The notes under the pieces are model-generated. The model had not been told where the DNA came from. It ran no database searches and was given only the letters and a program-made list of their open reading frames with translations. The position numbers and the translations under genes were made by a program. Below, one piece after another: positions 531 to 22,804 of a stretch of 64,000 nt of DNA; position 1 is the first letter of the stretch; the number at the start of each line of letters is the position of its first letter. This stretch comes from Naegleria gruberi (Eukaryota): the NCBI GenBank assembly GCA_000004985.1, contig GG738898.1. One strand, given 5' to 3'.

Positions 531-2611
531 ATGTGGAATATAATGGATCATATTTCGAGCGATCAGGCAAAGACCGTCACTGAGAAGGTTATTGATGAGG
601 AGGATGTTAGTAAATATTCGCATTGGTATTGTAGGGATGAAAGTCTTTTGAAGGAGGATGCGGAATCAAAGCCTAATGAAGAGGCCATCAGAAAAGTACA
701 AAATTCAATGATTTATTATTTGATCAGAGATGAAGAGACAAAATCGGATGCTGCTGATCAAAAACAACAAGTAGAAACAGAAACTGAAAAGACTAACGAT
801 GAAAACAATCAAGAAAAGAAAGAAGAAAACAAGGAAAAGAAAGAAGAAAAGATTCCGAATGATTTGTTTGAAATGGAAACAACTCAAGGAGAGGACGATC
901 TTGTTACGGTCAATTATAATAGATTGGGTCAGAAGGAAGAAGAGTTGGTCTATTTTACCATTCACATTCCAGATATTAAGAAGAAATTGTTGGTTTCTAG
1001 AGAATTACTATTGTTGGAAAGCAAGGTTTTTGAGGGAATGTTGAACAGTGAAATGTTGGAATCAAAATCAAATGAAATGACTCTCCAAAAGGAGCAAGCT
1101 CAAGAAGGTGAAAAATCATCATGTGAATACTTTGATTTGGCTATGGAATTTATTCATGTTGGAAAATTGGGTGTTTCCAAAACTTCATTCAATGAAAATG
1201 TTTCCAATATTATTGAATGGAAAGACTTGTTGGGTTTACTGAGAATTGCTGACGAATATCAAATTGAAAGTTTATCGAGAGCCATTTCAAGAGTTGTAAA
1301 TCAATTCAATGCTCTCACTATTGGAATTACTTGTTTGGAATTTTCAGCTGATTGTAAATCCATCATCTTGCCAAACGTGTGTGATAATTTGGCTTTCAAT
1401 CCAGCTTGCGTTGTATCGGATATGGTTTATTCTGGAATACCAATTGAAACTGCAAACCATGAAGAGGTTAACCAATACTTGGAAGATCCAAAACTTGCAC
1501 TCAAAGAGTATCCATTCCTCGATAGTAATTTAGCTCCTCCAACTTTGCACAAGATTCTTGCAACACCACTTGTGCAACCACTCGCAAAGATTATTATTTC
1601 ACTTCCAATTGAATTATTTGAAGGAATGATGACATCACCTTATTGCGCTCTTAAACAAGATCCAAAGATGGCATTCATTGTTTTGTGGATGCTTCAAGAT
1701 GTTGAGAATAGATATATTGATACTTTTAGATTATTGAAAAGTGTTGATTGGAGCTTGTGTGAAACTGAAATTCTCTACACACTCATCTACTTTGTATTTA
1801 TAGGAATTGGAAAAACATTGCCACAACATAAGAGTATTTGTGGAGAGGCTCACGACATGCTACACATGTCCATGTTTAGAAAAAATAATACTCTTTCTGA
1901 TGAGGATTGGTCAAACTATCTCACCAAATTATTTCCAGAAAGAGAACAAGGCAAAATCAGTCATCTACACAAGGAGTTGAGATTCTTGAATCTTGGAATT
2001 GATGCCTCTGGTAAAACAACACTTCTGTACAAACTTAAATTGGATGAGGTTGTCACAACTGTAAGTAATTTATGAGATTGTAATATTTCTTATAATTTAT
2101 AGATTCCAACCATTGGATTTAATGTAGAAACTGTAGATTATAAGAATGCCAAGATTACCATGGTAAGTTAAAGTATTGATTTTGTTATATTGACTTTAAA
2201 TAGTGGGATGTTGGTGGTGCTTACAAGCTTAGAGCTCTTTGGAGACACTATTACCAAAACACTAATGGCGTAGTTTTCGTTGTGGATTCTAATGATAGAG
2301 ACAGATTGGAGGAAGCAGCTGATGACCTCCACAAATTGGCTAAAGAAGACGAGCTCAAAGATTGTCCAATTTTAATTTTGGCTAACAAGCAAGACCTTCC
2401 AAATGCTATGAGTGTCGCAGAAATAGCAGACAAGATGAAATTAACTTCACTTTCACAAAAGAAATGGTTCATTCAAGCATGTTGCGCTCTGACTGGTGAA
2501 GGATTGTATGAAGGTCTGGAATGGGCTGTTGAATCATGTAATGTGAAACTTGTGAATACTCCAAAGGGTAATCTTCAAAAGTTCTCTCATTTCGGAACTA
2601 TGACATTTTAA
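531..2611 (+). CDS. BTB-domain/ARF-like small GTPase fusion protein. Exons: 531..2060, 2103..2162, 2204..2611.
   Basis: Exon 1 has an acidic/Lys-rich N-terminus and a BTB/POZ-like block (VYFTIHIPD...[19 protein letters not shown]...[13 protein letters not shown]). The ARF G1 motif [14 protein letters not shown] ends exon 1. The introns are gtaagt...tag (42 nt) and gtaagt...aatag (41 nt). Exons 2-3 read [20 protein letters not shown]|[16 protein letters not shown]...ILANKQDLP...CALTGEGL, which is ARF switch I/II with NKxD and SA(T) motifs. Stop TAA at 2609-2611. A-tract precedes ATG 531. Confidence 0.8.
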
Positions 2612-2788
2612 AGAACGCTTAATATATTTACTTTAATTTCTATTTACCGCAATTTATTTCCCCAAGTATCGAATAAGATGAAGTTGAGTTCTTACAAAGG
2701 AAATACTTTATTCTCTCGAAATGATTCGGTCAATATTAACACTAATGTGTACACTAAAAATTGATAATTTTGGATGATATTTCACAAC

Positions 2789-3193
2789 TTAACACCATCT
2801 AACACCTCCAGCACAACCATATCCGGCGCCATAACCATAACCACCATAATAAGGAACAGCTCCATATCCACCATAATATGGAACTCCATAACCTCCATAT
2901 CCACCATAGAATGGCATTGAGTAAGCACTTCCATAATTATTTCCATAACTTGTTGGACCAACATATGAAGATCCATAACTTGAGTATGGATTTGAGTTGA
3001 CAGCATTAATTTGATTCAAATAGGATTGAGTGTTTTGAGCATATTGATTGTAATTTCCTCCAGTGACTCCATAGTTAGAACCAGCACCTCCATATGAACC
3101 ATAATTGTTGCCATAATTGTTGCTATATTGGCAGTTGACCAAGCATGCAGCTAAGAGAAGAGTTGCGACAAGAGCAGTGATGAATTTGTTCAT
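2789..3193 (-). CDS. Small secreted Gly/Tyr/Asn-rich protein (signal peptide plus GYG repeats)
   Basis: ATG at 3193. N-terminal hydrophobic signal MNKFITALVATLLLAACLVNC, followed by YGGYG/NYG low-complexity repeats. Confidence 0.55.
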   Translation of the reverse strand: MNKFITALVATLLLAACLVNCQYSNNYGNNYGSYGGAGSNYGVTGGNYNQYAQNTQSYLNQINAVNSNPYSSYGSSYVGPTSYGNNYGSAYSMPFYGGYGGYGVPYYGGYGAVPYYGGYGYGAGYGCAGGVRWC

Positions 3194-3507
3194 TGTTTTG
3201 ATTTGTTTTTTATCTGAATTGAATGAGAATGAAAGTTTCTTGGTATTTATATGTTTGGAAAAATTGTTTTGGATGCTAACATCTTGTTTTCTAAATGTAA
3301 ATTGGACAAAATAGGAATGGTTGTTGTGGATTTTGTGTAATTTAGGATGATTTTGAAATGTAAATAGAAATTCGACTAAAATGTAATTATTCGATTAATG
3401 TAATTATCTGATCTTTGCAAATTTTTGATAGAATTATCTTGGTTGTTGCCAATATTTAGAATAATAATCACCACCAATGTCTCAACACTAGAATAAATTT
3501 ATTGAAT

Positions 3508-4020
3508 TTAAATAGTGTTGGAATTATCCTGATTAACTTCTAGTTGATTACTTTCTCTCTTCTTTGAAATGAACAAAGCATTCACAACCAAACAAAACAA
3601 TTCAAAGGACACAATAAAACTTGCAGGAAATCTAATTTCAAAATTATTTCCAAAACCATAGAACACGAAAGGAAAATCTCCAACAAGAATCGAAACAATT
3701 TGAAGAACAGACACACCACTCAATATGAAATAATTAACTCCTTCATGATGGAGAATGTAGAATAGACCAGCCAATAGAACCTTAATTATTAATGCAATAG
3801 TTTGAATGAAATTCTTCTCCTTATCACTTCCCAAAAACGTGTAACATACAAGCATTAGTAGCATGGAAAAAACTAAATATCCACTCTGTGGTAGTCGTTC
3901 TTGTTCCTTAATTTGGTTGCACTCTTGCTGATTGTTGCTAAGACTTGGTAGAGTTTGAGATTGTTCAACGTCTTTTGGATTGTTACTTTCATCAATTGAG
4001 AGCATAGTATTTGTTTGCAT
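3508..4020 (-). CDS. Small multi-pass membrane protein, paralog A of a tandem pair
   Basis: ATG at 4020. Predicted 4 TM helices. Shares the block TIALIIKxLLxxLxxI...NYFILxGVxxxQxVSILVGD with the 4143..4730 gene. Confidence 0.6.
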   Translation of the reverse strand: MQTNTMLSIDESNNPKDVEQSQTLPSLSNNQQECNQIKEQERLPQSGYLVFSMLLMLVCYTFLGSDKEKNFIQTIALIIKVLLAGLFYILHHEGVNYFILSGVSVLQIVSILVGDFPFVFYGFGNNFEIRFPASFIVSFELFCLVVNALFISKKRESNQLEVNQDNSNTI

Positions 4021-5947: not shown

Positions 5948-8450
5948 TTGAAAATGAGTCAACCACCTTCCGAACCAACTCAACCAGTATCATCATCACA
6001 GTATGTAGAAAGTCTACCAATTCCAGAGGAATCATCACCAAGATTTAGATCAAATTCAAGGTCTCGAGATGGACCACTCTCTCCTACCTTCCAAAAGATG
6101 CCAGCCGATGTTTGGGATTTATCCTCTGAACACCATTCGAAAAAAGCTTCTCTTCCAAAATCACCATCAAGCTTATTAAAGGGATCTAACTGCAATTTGC
6201 AACAAATTGGAAAAACCAACTCATCATCTCAAGTTACACATCATTCAAAGACAAAATTAACTTTGGACATTATTCGTAAATTGCCAAAAGCTGAATTGCA
6301 CAGACACTTGGATGGTTCTGTTCGTGTTGAAACCATCATTGAACTTGCCAAGGAACAAGGTGTCGATTTGCCATCATTTGATGTTGAAGAATTGAGAAAA
6401 CTTGTCTCTGTTACAAATGATTGCACTTCACTTGTTGAATATTTACGTGGCTTTGATATTTCCCTCTCTGTCATGCAAAAGAGATACAGTATCACACGTA
6501 TCATGTACGAAGTTTGTGAAGATGCTGGAANNNNNNNNNNNNNNNNNNNNNNNNNNNNNNNNNNNNNNNNNNNNNNNNNNAGGTATGAGACAAATGGATA
6601 GCAAGATTACCTTGCAACTTGCAGAAATTGCTTGGCGTTACAGAGACCGTGGTGTCTGTGCCTTTGACTTGGCTGGGCCAGAAAATGGCTTCTCCTCAAA
6701 GAACCATGCTTCTGCATTTGAATTAGTTCATCGTAAAATGTTGAACTGCACTCTTCACTCTGGTGAAGCCAGTGGTTGGGAATCTATTCAAGATTCAATT
6801 CGTTATTGTGGTGCTAATCGTATTGGTCACGGAACTCACTTGAAGGAAAATCCAGACCTCACTCAATATGTTGCCAATCACAGAATTCCAATCGAAATTT
6901 GTATCACCAGTAACTTGCAAACTAAGGCCATTCAAAAATTCGAAGAACATCCAGTTCGTGAATTCTTTGATTATGGTATTGTACTTGTTCCATGTACTGA
7001 TAATACTACTGTTAGTAATGTAACACTCTCTGAAGAATACTTGTTAATTCAAAACCAATTCGGATTTGATGTTAAGGAAATTGTCAAACTCATTGATTAT
7101 GGTTTCCGTTCTGCATTCTTGGACTTGTCTATTAAGAACAGACTCCGTGCTGATGCTCTCCATACCATTCAAGAAATCCTCTCCAGTGAAGGATACGACT
7201 TGACAAGTAGTTTCTCTGCCAAGTCTGCTGTTGATTTGGGCTTTGATTTCAACAATAGAGCTGAAATTCTCCCAGTTGACTATGATCTCTACAAGAATGA
7301 AACCATCAGACAATTCATCAATTCCATTCCAAAGGCTGATGTTAACTGTCGTTTCAATGGTTCAGTTTCTGTTGATACTTTGTGGACAAACTTGTCACAC
7401 GATGAATACTCTACCGATTTCCTCAATTTGGAATTGGAATTATTAGGATTGGGAAGAATTCACTCCAAGAATGAATTGGAATGTCTTATTAGACCACCTG
7501 GAGCCAAGCATGACAAGTCAACAATTGCTCGTGCCATTCAAGTCATGTCCTTGTTCTTACAAACTAAGAGTCAAATTATTCATGGTTGTGAAGATATTTT
7601 AGAAAAGGCTGCTGCTGAGCATGTCTTTTATCTTGAATTACAAGTGAGACCAACTATGCACACCAAGAGAGGTCTCAGTGCTCAAGAAGTTTTGGATGTC
7701 ATGGTTGTTACTATCAATGAATGCAGCAAGAGATATAATATTCAAGTTGGTCTCGTTGTTTATGGTGATTTTACTTCCGATGGTTTGGACCAATTGAAAG
7801 AACTTTCCCTCCTCACCATTAGAAATAAGAAGAATTTGGTTGGTTTTGGTTTCTTTGGATACAATGATGAAAAGGGTGCTATCCTCCCTGAATTAATCCC
7901 AGTTTTCAACATGTTGAAGAATCATCAAATTAACGTTTGCTGTTCTGCTGGTTTCTATAATCCTCTCAGTGTCATTCCTGCTATCCATGATGTTGGTGCT
8001 TCTAGATTGAGTGGTTGTTTCTCCATCCACTCTTCTCCATCTGTCATGAGCTACTTGTGTGACAATGGTGTTCCTATTGAAATTTCCATGACTGATACTT
8101 TGAAGAATCTCACAAAGGAAGTTAATGAATTTGCTGGATCTGCTGTCAGATTATTCTTGGATAGAGGTATCAAGGTTGCTCCATGTTCACTCGATTTGAC
8201 CTTGTACGATATGAATCGTTCTGAAAATATCTACTTGATGTCTAAGGAATGCAATTTGAGTTTGAACGAAGTTGTTCAACTCATGTTAATTGGTTTCCGT
8301 ATCTGTTTCCAAAACTATTGGACTCGTAAGGAAATGTTCATTGGTGCCTATCACACAATGTTGAAATTGGTTGATAATTTGAAACTCACATTTGACACTG
8401 ATTCATTCTCCCTCTTCTGTTCCTCATACAATCCAGCGGAAAAGGATTGA
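5948..8450 (+). CDS. Adenosine/AMP deaminase-family protein with tandem ADA-like domains. Spans the 50-N gap at 6531-6580, which causes an apparent frame change.
   Basis: Domain 1: LPKAELHRHLDGS (His-His metal site), LHSGEASG (HxGE), NRIGHG, VPCTDN. Domain 2 (about 7300-8450) has the same fold-order motifs but is degenerate: CRFNGS, CCSAGF, RLSGCF, SMTDT. The N-terminal 100 aa are Ser-rich. Stop at 8448-8450. Confidence 0.75.
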
Positions 8451-19337: not shown

Positions 19338-19874
19338 TTACAATTTGCTAGATAACCAATCTAAACCTTCAAATAAACCAGTGCCATTCATTGCGCTACA
19401 TGGTTGTATATACCAATCTTGTTTGATTGAATTTAATTGCAGAATCTTGGCAAGATCTGTAACATTGGCAGCTCTTGGTAAATCTTGCTTATTAGCCCAC
19501 ACCAATAACTTGGCATTTGATAGAGATGGATCTTCCATTACTTTATGCAATGTTTCCGAAACTTCTTCAAATCTCTCTCTATCATTCGAATCGACAATGA
19601 ATATCACAGCATCTGTTCCATTATAATAATGTCTCCATAAGGTTCTAATCTTATCCTGACCACCAATATCAAACACTCTGAATTGAACTCTCTTATATTG
19701 AATCACTTCGGCATTGAAACCAATAGTAGGTATAGTATTGACATTCTCATCTAATTGAATCTTGTACAGTGTTGATGTTTTACCAGCTGCATCCAAACCT
19801 AAGAAGAGAATTTTTGCTTGTTTGTTTTCGAATAGGGATAAGTTCTTTATCATGTTAGAAAGTAATTGACCCAT
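19338..19874 (-). CDS. ARF-like small GTPase (ARL), intronless
   Basis: MGQ N-terminus (myristoylation), [35 protein letters not shown] and CSA motifs. Confidence 0.85.
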
Positions 19875-20113: not shown

Positions 20114-22344
20114 TTACTCAGAAGTATTATCATTAATTTCTGCCATTATTGAATCGATGGAACTTTTTGGTTCATTAAGGACCGATAATATTTCCTCATC
20201 TTTTTGAAAAGTAGTATCGAGATGTTCATAAATTTCATCATATTTACGAATGACCATCTTGATTATTTCCTTGTCTATTAATAAGGATCTACAACTCAAA
20301 TAAGCACGAGGAAATTTCTCTAATATTGGAAGCATAAATTCCTTGTCGTCTAAATCCTTGGTTTCCAAATAAAGCAATAAACCTATATCCTTGGATTTAA
20401 ATATTCCACTCCTTACTAATTCTCTATTTGGTTTTGTAATGTATCCTGAACCAATTAATTTTTTTAAATGCTTTGCTTGGAATTCATCATCAAGTTTTAA
20501 ATCTTTGGATAATCGAGGAAAGTAGGTATGATTCAGATAAGTTTCAATTATTATTTGATTATTTCTTAAATTATTGCATGATAGATTTTCATATAGAGCA
20601 GGATATATTTCAATTATTTCATTTACCAATTCAATGTCATCTGAACATTTTTGCATCAATTCATTTCCTTGTTCTTTCACTTCAATGGCATGAATCAAGT
20701 GAGAGAAACCCTGTTTATCAAGGCGCAAGTTCTTAATAAAATCCAAACCAATGTTGGAAATATTAATTGTAGAATCTTTCAAAAAACTTGATGTAAAATA
20801 CCCTTTTTTGGTACGAGTAATAATTTTCAATATGAAATCTGCGTCGTGTTGATAGTAAAACAACTCAGGCAGTGGTACACCCAACAATATTAAATCTAAC
20901 ACTCTTTCTTTTGAAATATTTTCAAACAATTCCTGTTTGAAATGTGTGTGATAATTTTCACTCAAACAATTCAATATTTTTTCTATTTCTTCACTTGAAA
21001 ACTTGTCTGATAATATTTTTCTGAGAATATCTCGATCCATTTTTCTTCTATCTTCCAAAGTAAAATATAAACTAGGTGTTATTACCTGTACCAATGAGTC
21101 ATGATCCAAATGGTCCTTCAAATTATGGAAAGTCTTGGAATTTTCTGTAATTATCTCTATAAAAAAATCTTGAGTTTTAAGATCTTCAGGTAGACAATTA
21201 AAATTTGAATCAAAATCACGTTGTGATTTGCAGCCTTTCATTGCAAGTTTGGCAAATAATCTATCTTTTAAACTACTCTCACTTAAGGATGCATAAAAAG
21301 TCGGATCTACTTCCAAAATTTCCTTTGCATATTGTTGTTCATATTTAAATCTTAACTCATCTGAACTGATGTCAGTGATAAACTTTGGATTTTTCTCTAG
21401 TACATATTGAATTATTTCTTCATCATCTCGGTAACTACAATGCTGGAAACATTCTTCCACTTTTTTGATGAATGAAAATACAATATTTCTATTAAATTTG
21501 TACTTGAAAGGAAAGTAATTAAAAAATAGAGAGTCATACTCTACTAATATTTCCAACTGACTCTCGCTTAACTTTTCCATCTCTATCTGGATTCTCTTTC
21601 CTGTATTATATTGTACATTTCTAAGCACATGAACGTCTATGAGTTGTGAAATTAAGGACTTAAACTTATCTATGCAAGCCTTATTTCTGTTTTGAAATAT
21701 TAATACTGATCTGACATCTCTTATTGACTTTCTAACTATATTTTCATCCAACAAATCGTCAGGAACCATTTCGAAAATACGGTGATTGTTATCCAATACT
21801 TTGTAAATAAAGCGCTTATTTTTGTTGTAAGGGCAAAATTTTAAACAATTTGGGTTCATAACACAAGCATGCAAGTACTTATCCCACTGCGTTCTGTTTT
21901 TTGGATCTTTAAATGCTATGGTAGTTGCAAGTGAAATATCAGCCAATACATTCATCATTTTCATTCTTGTTGGGAGAGTTGAATTTTTAAGACTAGTAAT
22001 AATTTCTTTCAAAAGAGGAGTACTATTGATAGTGGTTTTGTTGGATAATCGTTCAAGTGTTACACCTAGGGCGTACAAATCAGTTTCAGTTTTGAAAGGA
22101 AACTCTAGTAAACCTCTTTTTTCGGTGTTAAAGTATTTTTCAATTTCTGGATCGTAATATTGCTCAGTTCCAGTTTTGAATTGGTAGGGCTTGTATGAGT
22201 TTTTCTTAAAAGATACTCCAAAGTCTGTCAATACTACATAAATATTAGAATCAGTAATTTCCTTCACGAGTATGTTAGCAATTTTGACGTCTCGATGACA
22301 TAGTTCCTGTTCTGAAATATATTTAATAGCACTTGAAATTGACA
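20114..22344 (-). CDS. Protein kinase (5' partial, N-lobe lost in the 50-N gap at 22345-22394) with a roughly 600-aa C-terminal extension of unknown function
   Basis: Frame directly after the gap reads SISSAIKYISEQELCHRDVKIANILVKE...TDFGVSF, which is the catalytic loop HRDxKxxN plus DFG. The upstream ORF 22449..22760 (acidic, about 100 aa) may be a 5' exon or a separate small gene. Confidence 0.6.
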
Positions 22345-22804
22345 NNNNNNNNNNNNNNNNNNNNNNNNNNNNNNNNNNNNNNNNNNNNNNNNNNTCTCTG
22401 CTTCAGGTAATTGTACTTTGTTTTCAATATCAATATTAACATCGTCCATTAGCTTTTCTTTTTCGGAATAGCTTGTTCATAGGTTGGACTTTCTGGCATA
22501 AAAAAGTGAGTTGGGCCACTGGTAGGTTCATCAGCTTGGTCATCCTTGTTTCCTTCTACTGTTGTATCATCCTCTTCATCAGAATATTCTCTTTCTCTCT
22601 TGTTGAAAGAATTTAACATTTTAAAGATTTTTTTTAATTTTAAATTATCTTGTGAAATCATCTCACTTTTCCAAGTTGTCAACTTGCTCATCCTGCAGCT
22701 TAGAATTTGAAATAAACTAAAATAAAATAAATTAATCCAAGCAATAAACAACGTATCCATTCCAGCTCTTGCTCTATTAAGCTACATTTCGATTATTAAT
22801 TTGG

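Follow-up and report, generated by a model that had tools for sequence, protein, structure and literature searches.

What can an Arf-type GTPase do when it has lost its catalytic glutamine and forms the C-terminal end of a BTB protein? This question is raised by a gene at positions 531-2611 (plus strand) of the window analysed here, a 64,000-nucleotide stretch of Naegleria gruberi contig GG738898.1 (assembly GCA_000004985.1). Its product is listed as NgrArf1k by Vargová et al. (2021, Genome Biol Evol, Supplementary Table 1, PMC8358228), which assigns it to class Arf1, with BTB as extra domain and without myristoylation. Our analysis revealed that NgrArf1k joins a BTB domain and a helical BACK-like domain to an Arf1-derived G domain with alanine at the glutamine position, and that it belongs to a family in which this glutamine was lost more than once. 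We propose that such proteins may be cullin adaptors carrying a GTP-locked Arf head.

The three-exon gene and its switch II

The gene model was built directly from the window sequence. Over its full length, the 665-residue product agrees exactly with N. gruberi XP_002672337.1 (EFC39593.1; UniProt D2VUA2), which is annotated as “ARF/SAR family small GTPase”; the three-exon structure first read from the DNA is the reference model. The ATG is preceded, 5 codons upstream, by an in-frame TAG, and retention of either intron 1 or intron 2 introduces stop codons into the read-through. The exons, the introns and the elements of the G domain are as follows.

531..2060, plus strand: exon 1, codons 1-510 (N-terminal region, BTB and BACK-like domains, and the first part of the G domain with the P-loop)
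2061..2102, plus strand: intron 1, 42 nucleotides, GTAAGT…TAG, phase 0
2103..2162, plus strand: exon 2, codons 511-530 (switch I and interswitch)
2163..2203, plus strand: intron 2, 41 nucleotides, GTAAGT…TAG, phase 0, directly before the Trp of WDVGG
2204..2611, plus strand: exon 3, codons 531-665 and TAA (2609-2611), from switch II to the C-terminus
1956..2536, plus strand: Arf-type G domain (Pfam Arf), residues 476-641, with two introns within
1995-2021, plus strand: P-loop GIDASGKTT (G1), residues 489-497, in exon 1
2204..2251, plus strand: switch II, residues 531-546; Q71A, D72Y, I74L and P76A relative to Arf1
2219..2221, plus strand: Ala536, codon GCT, at the position of Arf1 Gln71
2384-2395, plus strand: NKQD (G4)
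2480-2491, plus strand: CCAL (G5)

Exons 2 and 3 complete an Arf-type G domain, as the original prediction had stated. The domain matches Pfam Arf (PF00025) with 231.4 bits (E=6e-69, cut-off 22.3) over profile positions 8-173 of 174, and ARF1 crystal structures with E=2e-72 to about 1e-70. It is 66% identical to the housekeeping Arf1a of N. gruberi and 62% identical to human ARF1. Switch I and the interswitch are Arf1-like, and the nucleotide-binding motifs are all canonical, namely GIDASGKTT (G1), the switch I Thr (G2), DVGG (G3), NKQD (G4), and CCAL (G5). The switch II glutamine of the ARF family (DVGGQ) is absent, and Ala536 stands in its place. The N-terminal Gly2 myristoylation site and amphipathic helix of the ARF family are absent from the protein start as well, because the G domain is internal: it begins at about residue 476 of 665, and the first residues of the protein are MWNIM.

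An artefact (an incorrect gene model or misassembly at the Ala codon) or a duplicate in decay might account for so unusual a residue, although nothing else speaks for this reading. An identical switch II with the same Ala codon is present on an independently assembled metagenome contig of another study (L003), which differs from the window gene by 4 substitutions and one 6-nucleotide (two-codon) insertion over approximately 1.9 kb. Errors of sequencing or assembly therefore do not explain Ala536. The gene has an uninterrupted reading frame and canonical splice sites, and an intron position is common to homologues in other species. The agreement with RefSeq and the strong conservation of the G domain, together with the intact frame, exclude pseudogene status. 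Splicing that restores the glutamine was also considered and rejected, as the Ala codon is 5 codons into exon 3, with no in-frame CAA or CAG nearby. We regard an artefact or a decaying gene as extremely improbable, and the identity and architecture of NgrArf1k as practically certain.

Replacement of this glutamine is the classic route to GTP-locked Arf and Arl mutants, and Arl13b naturally lacks it (PMC6140319). The sequence of NgrArf1k suggests, with good confidence, that the protein is deficient in GTP hydrolysis.

The BTB and BACK-like domains

The remainder of exon 1 was predicted to encode a BTB domain ahead of the P-loop, and we found both there, at residues 137-256 and 489-497, respectively. 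The possibility that BTB profile hidden Markov models would fail on the N-terminal region was raised beforehand. The Pfam BTB profile (PF00651) scored 22.4 bits with the whole protein (E=1.4e-4) and 24.2 bits with the fragment only, against a cut-off of 20.5. At the family level, 10 of 15 members matched Pfam BTB (best E=6.6e-10), and a profile of three members matched the SPOP BTB domain with E=1.6e-8. This family-level evidence settles the BTB call, which is weak for the NgrArf1k sequence alone, and we consider this sequence-based assignment solid. The features of this part of the protein are as follows.

939..1298, plus strand: BTB/POZ domain, residues 137-256
1053..1061, plus strand: candidate φ-x-E motif M175-L176-E177, aligned with HEMEESKKN of SPOP and GQFSESRSG of KLHL11
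1299..1940, plus strand: 3-box/BACK-like all-helical domain, residues about 257-470

The fold of this region was searched with an AlphaFold model of residues 125-482, built from a 15-sequence alignment, with a mean predicted local distance difference test score (pLDDT) of 84 and a predicted template-modelling score of 0.81. A full-length model with 6 sequences was poor (pLDDT 58) and was not used for fold searches. Foldseek analysis against the PDB returned as its top match the BTB-BACK region of KLHL11 in complex with Cul3 (E=2e-5, 318 columns, template-modelling (TM) scores 0.40/0.50), followed by KBTBD4 and KBTBD2 with similar scores and by SPOP. In the model, the helical hairpins of a 3-box/BACK region would directly follow the BTB domain, and the match is moderate. 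A Pfam scan detected no BACK, RING, B-box, F-box or Kelch domain in NgrArf1k.

SPOP, KLHL3, KLHL11, and KEAP1 contact Cul3 mainly through the φ-x-E motif, which lies in the α3-β4 loop (PMC3616122, PMC10564622). The candidate motif of NgrArf1k is kept in 10 of 13 family members. This motif and the 3-box/BACK-like domain after the BTB domain, as judged from sequence and model, may strengthen the link to Cul3 that the original prediction had drawn from the BTB domain. Nine cullin-family genes have been reported in Naegleria, a count that covers the whole cullin family and not Cul3 specifically (PMC9928731). On the alignment and the predicted fold, we lean slightly towards the view that NgrArf1k binds a cullin.

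Several observations weigh against a cullin adaptor. The single-protein Pfam BTB score lies merely 2-4 bits or so over the cut-off, and a single-sequence phmmer search of the BTB region against the PDB was not significant (E about 0.9). The TM-scores of the BTB-BACK matches are modest (0.4-0.5) and the root-mean-square deviation is high; we therefore call the helical domain “BACK-like” and do not regard it as a proven BACK domain. The φ-x-E motif has been lost in NgrArf1c (P0157) and N. lovaniensis P0013, both of which keep the catalytic glutamine. Cullin binding is thus not constant across the family. The loss in these two proteins lends some support to a different role, in which the BTB-BACK region is unrelated to cullins and serves mere di- or oligomerization, so that the Arf-like module becomes bivalent (in membrane or cytoskeleton tethering, for example). 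However, Cul3 adaptors (SPOP, KLHL11, KBTBD2/4, KLHL22, and KEAP1), not BTB-ZF proteins, account for all of the best matches in sequence and structure, and NgrArf1k has both the φ-x-E motif and a 3-box-like hairpin. We consider oligomerization alone rather unlikely and favor the cullin adaptor.

The BTB-ARF family and the glutamine position

An exhaustive HMMER search of 1.84 billion representative proteins returned 646 proteins at E<1e-3, of which 13 were below E=1e-30. These 13 proteins belong to N. gruberi, N. lovaniensis, N. fowleri, and Willaertia magna or are metagenome calls; the matches inspected outside the family were ordinary multi-BTB proteins. The N. gruberi paralogues were retrieved from the supplement of Vargová et al. 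and from the exhaustive search, bringing the family in this species to at least four (NgrArf1c, j, k, and l). A word-indexed search with the full-length query gave almost no matches, probably because it was swamped by low-complexity words; with the N-terminal half, it gave a 98%-identical metagenome protein as the sole match and missed the N. gruberi paralogues. According to the exhaustive search, the family is confined to Naegleria, Willaertia, and metagenome contigs.

The members share one architecture, in order: a low-complexity N-terminus with two conserved motifs, the BTB domain, the 3-box/BACK-like domain, the Arf1-derived G domain, and a short tail. NgrArf1c (XP_002679438.1) is a member; the N-terminal family profile matched its cluster representative P0014, which is approximately 99% identical to it over exon 1, with E=1e-36. 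The table of Vargová et al. carries no BTB flag for NgrArf1c and does not flag the BACK-like domain in the Naegleria proteins (PMC8358228). SHWYC, the 12-residue motif, and (S/T)HFG are conserved in the Naegleria/Willaertia family outside the recognised domains, and the Naegleria paralogues end in (S/T)HFG, YFG, RFG or IFG motifs related to the SHFG of NgrArf1k. In the window gene, these motifs are located as follows.

618..722, plus strand: N-terminal motifs conserved across the family, SHWYC at residues 30-34 (618-632) and a 12-residue motif at residues 53-64 (687-722)
2537..2608, plus strand: C-terminal tail, residues 642-665, with conserved SHFG at residues 658-661 (2585-2596)

The intron before the Trp of WDxGG is common to the window gene, its homologues on the metagenome contigs L001 and L003, and two Willaertia genes on contig L002. 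This shared position supports a single origin of the family. Intron 1 is missing from the L001 homologue, and intron 2 is present. Contig L001 (ERZ27315067 k141_1470276) presumably comes from another vahlkampfiid; its homologue at 1911-3749 is 36% identical to NgrArf1k overall and has Gly at the Gln position (WDVGGGDKIRPLW). Contig L002 (W. magna JBEGDK010000036.1) carries two BTB-BACK-ARF paralogues, at 402-2314 and 6001-8238, 3.7 kb apart. One of the pair has Gln (WDVGGQDKIRPLW), and the other has Cys and a degenerate switch I and II (WDYGGCSEMRSLW); the NCBI model of the latter gene (P0008) is truncated at the intron.

The residues found at the position of Arf1 Gln71 are as follows.

Gln (kept): NgrArf1c, N. 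lovaniensis P0013, Willaertia P0002, Willaertia P0010
Ala: NgrArf1k
Asn: NgrArf1l
Leu: NgrArf1j, N. fowleri P0163
Gly: the L001 homologue
Thr: N. lovaniensis P0012
Ser: N. fowleri P0015, N. lovaniensis P0021
Cys: Willaertia 011871

The glutamine has thus been replaced by seven different residues in the family, while G1 is kept in all members and G4 (NKxD) in nearly all. In a bootstrapped neighbour-joining tree, a distance tree with unsupported deep nodes, NgrArf1k and NgrArf1l are sisters (100%). This pair lies within a 100%-supported clade that also contains NgrArf1c and P0013, which keep the glutamine. Because the family derives from Arf1, these positions in the tree imply that the glutamine was lost at least three times, in separate lineages, and probably about five times. 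The G domain of NgrArf1k is the least diverged in the family despite the loss, tied with Willaertia P0010 and the partial L001 protein, and this argues against simple decay.

Two other readings of the altered G domain bear on its proposed hydrolysis defect. Some GTPases without the glutamine still hydrolyse GTP with the help of a GTPase-activating protein (GAP) that supplies the catalytic residue, a further point against a GTP-locked protein; RapGAP provides such a residue in trans for Rap. NgrArf1k might likewise be a working switch that cycles between GDP and GTP, with the catalytic residue coming from a dedicated GAP or from a substitute residue in the protein itself. The conservation of the G domain (66% identity to NgrArf1a) and its intact nucleotide-binding motifs point to continued nucleotide dependence, and paralogues that keep the glutamine are present in the same genomes. 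However, we met no precedent in the Arf family for catalysis supplied in trans in this work. The free variation of the position (A, N, L, G, T, S, C) resembles a lost constraint and not a new catalytic residue, and the adjacent residues of switch II are also altered (D72Y, I74L, and P76A). A cycling switch therefore appears improbable to us.

The opposite reading is that the Arf-like domain has become independent of nucleotide and serves as a fixed protein-binding or structural module. Several paralogues with obvious degeneration would fit this description: in NgrArf1j, switch II is shortened and switch I altered; N. lovaniensis P0012 carries EVGG and NMQD; and no NKxD is recognisable in N. 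fowleri P0163. In NgrArf1k, however, G1 to G5 are canonical and the domain ties for the least diverged, which would be unexpected if nucleotide binding were dispensable. We give a pseudo-GTPase scaffold little weight for NgrArf1k, and prefer a domain that binds GTP and is poorly able to hydrolyse it.

Proposed mechanism, known systems and neighbouring genes

We propose the following mechanism for NgrArf1k. The G domain would still bind guanine nucleotide; ArfGAP-assisted hydrolysis would be lost, leaving the protein mostly GTP-bound, like the Q71L mutant of Arf1. The BTB-BACK module would dimerize and, with its φ-x-E motif and 3-box, bind a Cul3-type cullin. The Arf-like domain would then sit where classical Cul3 adaptors have their substrate-binding Kelch or MATH domain. 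It might act there as a receptor that, depending on its nucleotide state, brings Arf partners (effectors and GAPs) to the ligase, or it might regulate the adaptor. From the motifs and the predicted fold, we give this mechanism as a whole, a GTP-locked Arf head on a dimeric cullin-binding adaptor, an even chance. That the Arf domain itself serves as the substrate receptor seems doubtful. Less probable still is an extension to the whole family, whose members would be cullin-3 substrate receptors using a hydrolysis-dead, permanently “on” mimic of Arf1 as bait to deliver Arf1 effectors or ArfGAPs to the ubiquitin ligase; the repeated loss of the glutamine, with most nucleotide-binding motifs kept, would then reflect selection for GTP locking and not decay.

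If the mechanism is true, the family would be a natural case of a small-GTPase domain turned into the head of a cullin-RING ligase, for substrate recognition or for regulation. Arf1 membrane-traffic signalling and protein turnover would then be connected, in a lineage to which the pathogen Naegleria fowleri belongs with members of its own. The repeated natural replacement of the glutamine also offers a ready-made “Q71X” series for studying an Arf domain that cannot switch off.

The original prediction compared NgrArf1k with RhoBTB proteins. The resemblance holds in that an atypical small GTPase and BTB are fused in one polypeptide, and RhoBTB proteins are linked to Cul3. However, RhoBTB proteins have an N-terminal Rho-family GTPase followed by two tandem BTB domains, without BACK in the same position, whereas NgrArf1k has a single BTB domain, and its GTPase, of the Arf type, is C-terminal. 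The GTPase family, the domain order, and the BTB number all differ, and the two are independent fusions that are analogous, not homologous, in architecture.

The BTB-BACK-Kelch adaptors and TRIM23 are closer comparisons. NgrArf1k resembles the Cul3 adaptors (BTB-BACK-Kelch, KBTBD, and the MATH-BTB protein SPOP) in the succession of BTB and 3-box/BACK-like domains, in the φ-x-E motif, and in its best sequence and fold matches. It differs in carrying an Arf G domain instead of a Kelch propeller or MATH domain; the identity is 11-25%, and its cullin binding is predicted. TRIM23 (ARD1), an E3 ligase with RING, B-box, and coiled coil, likewise bears a C-terminal Arf G domain without N-myristoylation on a ubiquitin-ligase component. 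TRIM23 is animal-specific, however, and has its own RING instead of a cullin-adaptor module, whereas Pfam shows neither RING nor B-box in NgrArf1k. The ARF domain of TRIM23 keeps the catalytic glutamine.

Two further proteins share single aspects of this architecture. Arl13b has an ARF-family G domain with intact nucleotide-binding motifs and no catalytic glutamine (PMC6140319); this ciliary paralogue is ancient, bears a coiled-coil tail, and serves as guanine-nucleotide exchange factor for Arl3, whereas NgrArf1k is young, derives from Arf1, and has another partner domain. The Rab-BTB-BACK-Arf protein of Malawimonas californiana also has BTB and BACK upstream of a C-terminal Arf, but it has an extra N-terminal Rab domain and belongs to an unrelated lineage (PMC8358228, Fig. 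8A).

The gene, the BTB-Arf fusion, and the ubiquitin hypothesis have all been published before. Vargová et al. tabulated NgrArf1j and NgrArf1l beside NgrArf1k and read the BTB- and F-box-ARFs, like TRIM23, as recurrent recruitment of ARFs into ubiquitin-dependent circuits (PMC8358228). The words “glutamine” and “switch II” are absent from the main text of that paper (PMC8358228). We did not find reported the glutamine substitution and its recurrence in at least three lineages with some paralogues keeping the residue, the BACK-like domain, the φ-x-E motif, the conserved N-terminal and C-terminal (SHFG) motifs, or the restriction of the family to Naegleria and Willaertia. Our results confirm the observation on which the original prediction was built and support each part of its interpretation that could be tested computationally. 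Its central idea was correct yet already published, and the value added here is refinement (the BACK-like domain, the φ-x-E motif, and the pattern of glutamine loss), not discovery.

No further BTB-ARF gene was found within the 64-kb window. An intron-less, canonical single-domain Arf at 19341-19873 (minus strand), 17 kb from the BTB-ARF gene, has Gly2 and DIGGQ and thus keeps the glutamine; it is probably the Arf1b-type paralogue NgrArf1b3 (XP_002672405.1) of the table of Vargová et al. The Arf match within it at 19356-19826 (minus strand), taken with a long upstream open reading frame (ORF), was considered as NgrArf1l and rejected, being a plain Arf1b-type gene beside an unrelated kinase-like ORF. 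This ORF, at 20114-22267 (minus strand), resembles a protein kinase catalytic loop at its N-terminal end (HRDVKIANILV … DFGVS), and a run of N (assembly gap) at approximately 22345-22394 interrupts its 5' part. A 134-residue ORF at 2789-3193 (minus strand) is oriented convergently towards the BTB-ARF gene at the 3' end of the latter. Its product starts like a signal peptide (MNKFITALVATLLLAACLVNC), continues with low-complexity sequence rich in Gly, Tyr, and Asn, and may be a secreted or wall-type protein. Two long intron-less ORFs of the window are identical to XP_002672407.1 and XP_002672408.1.

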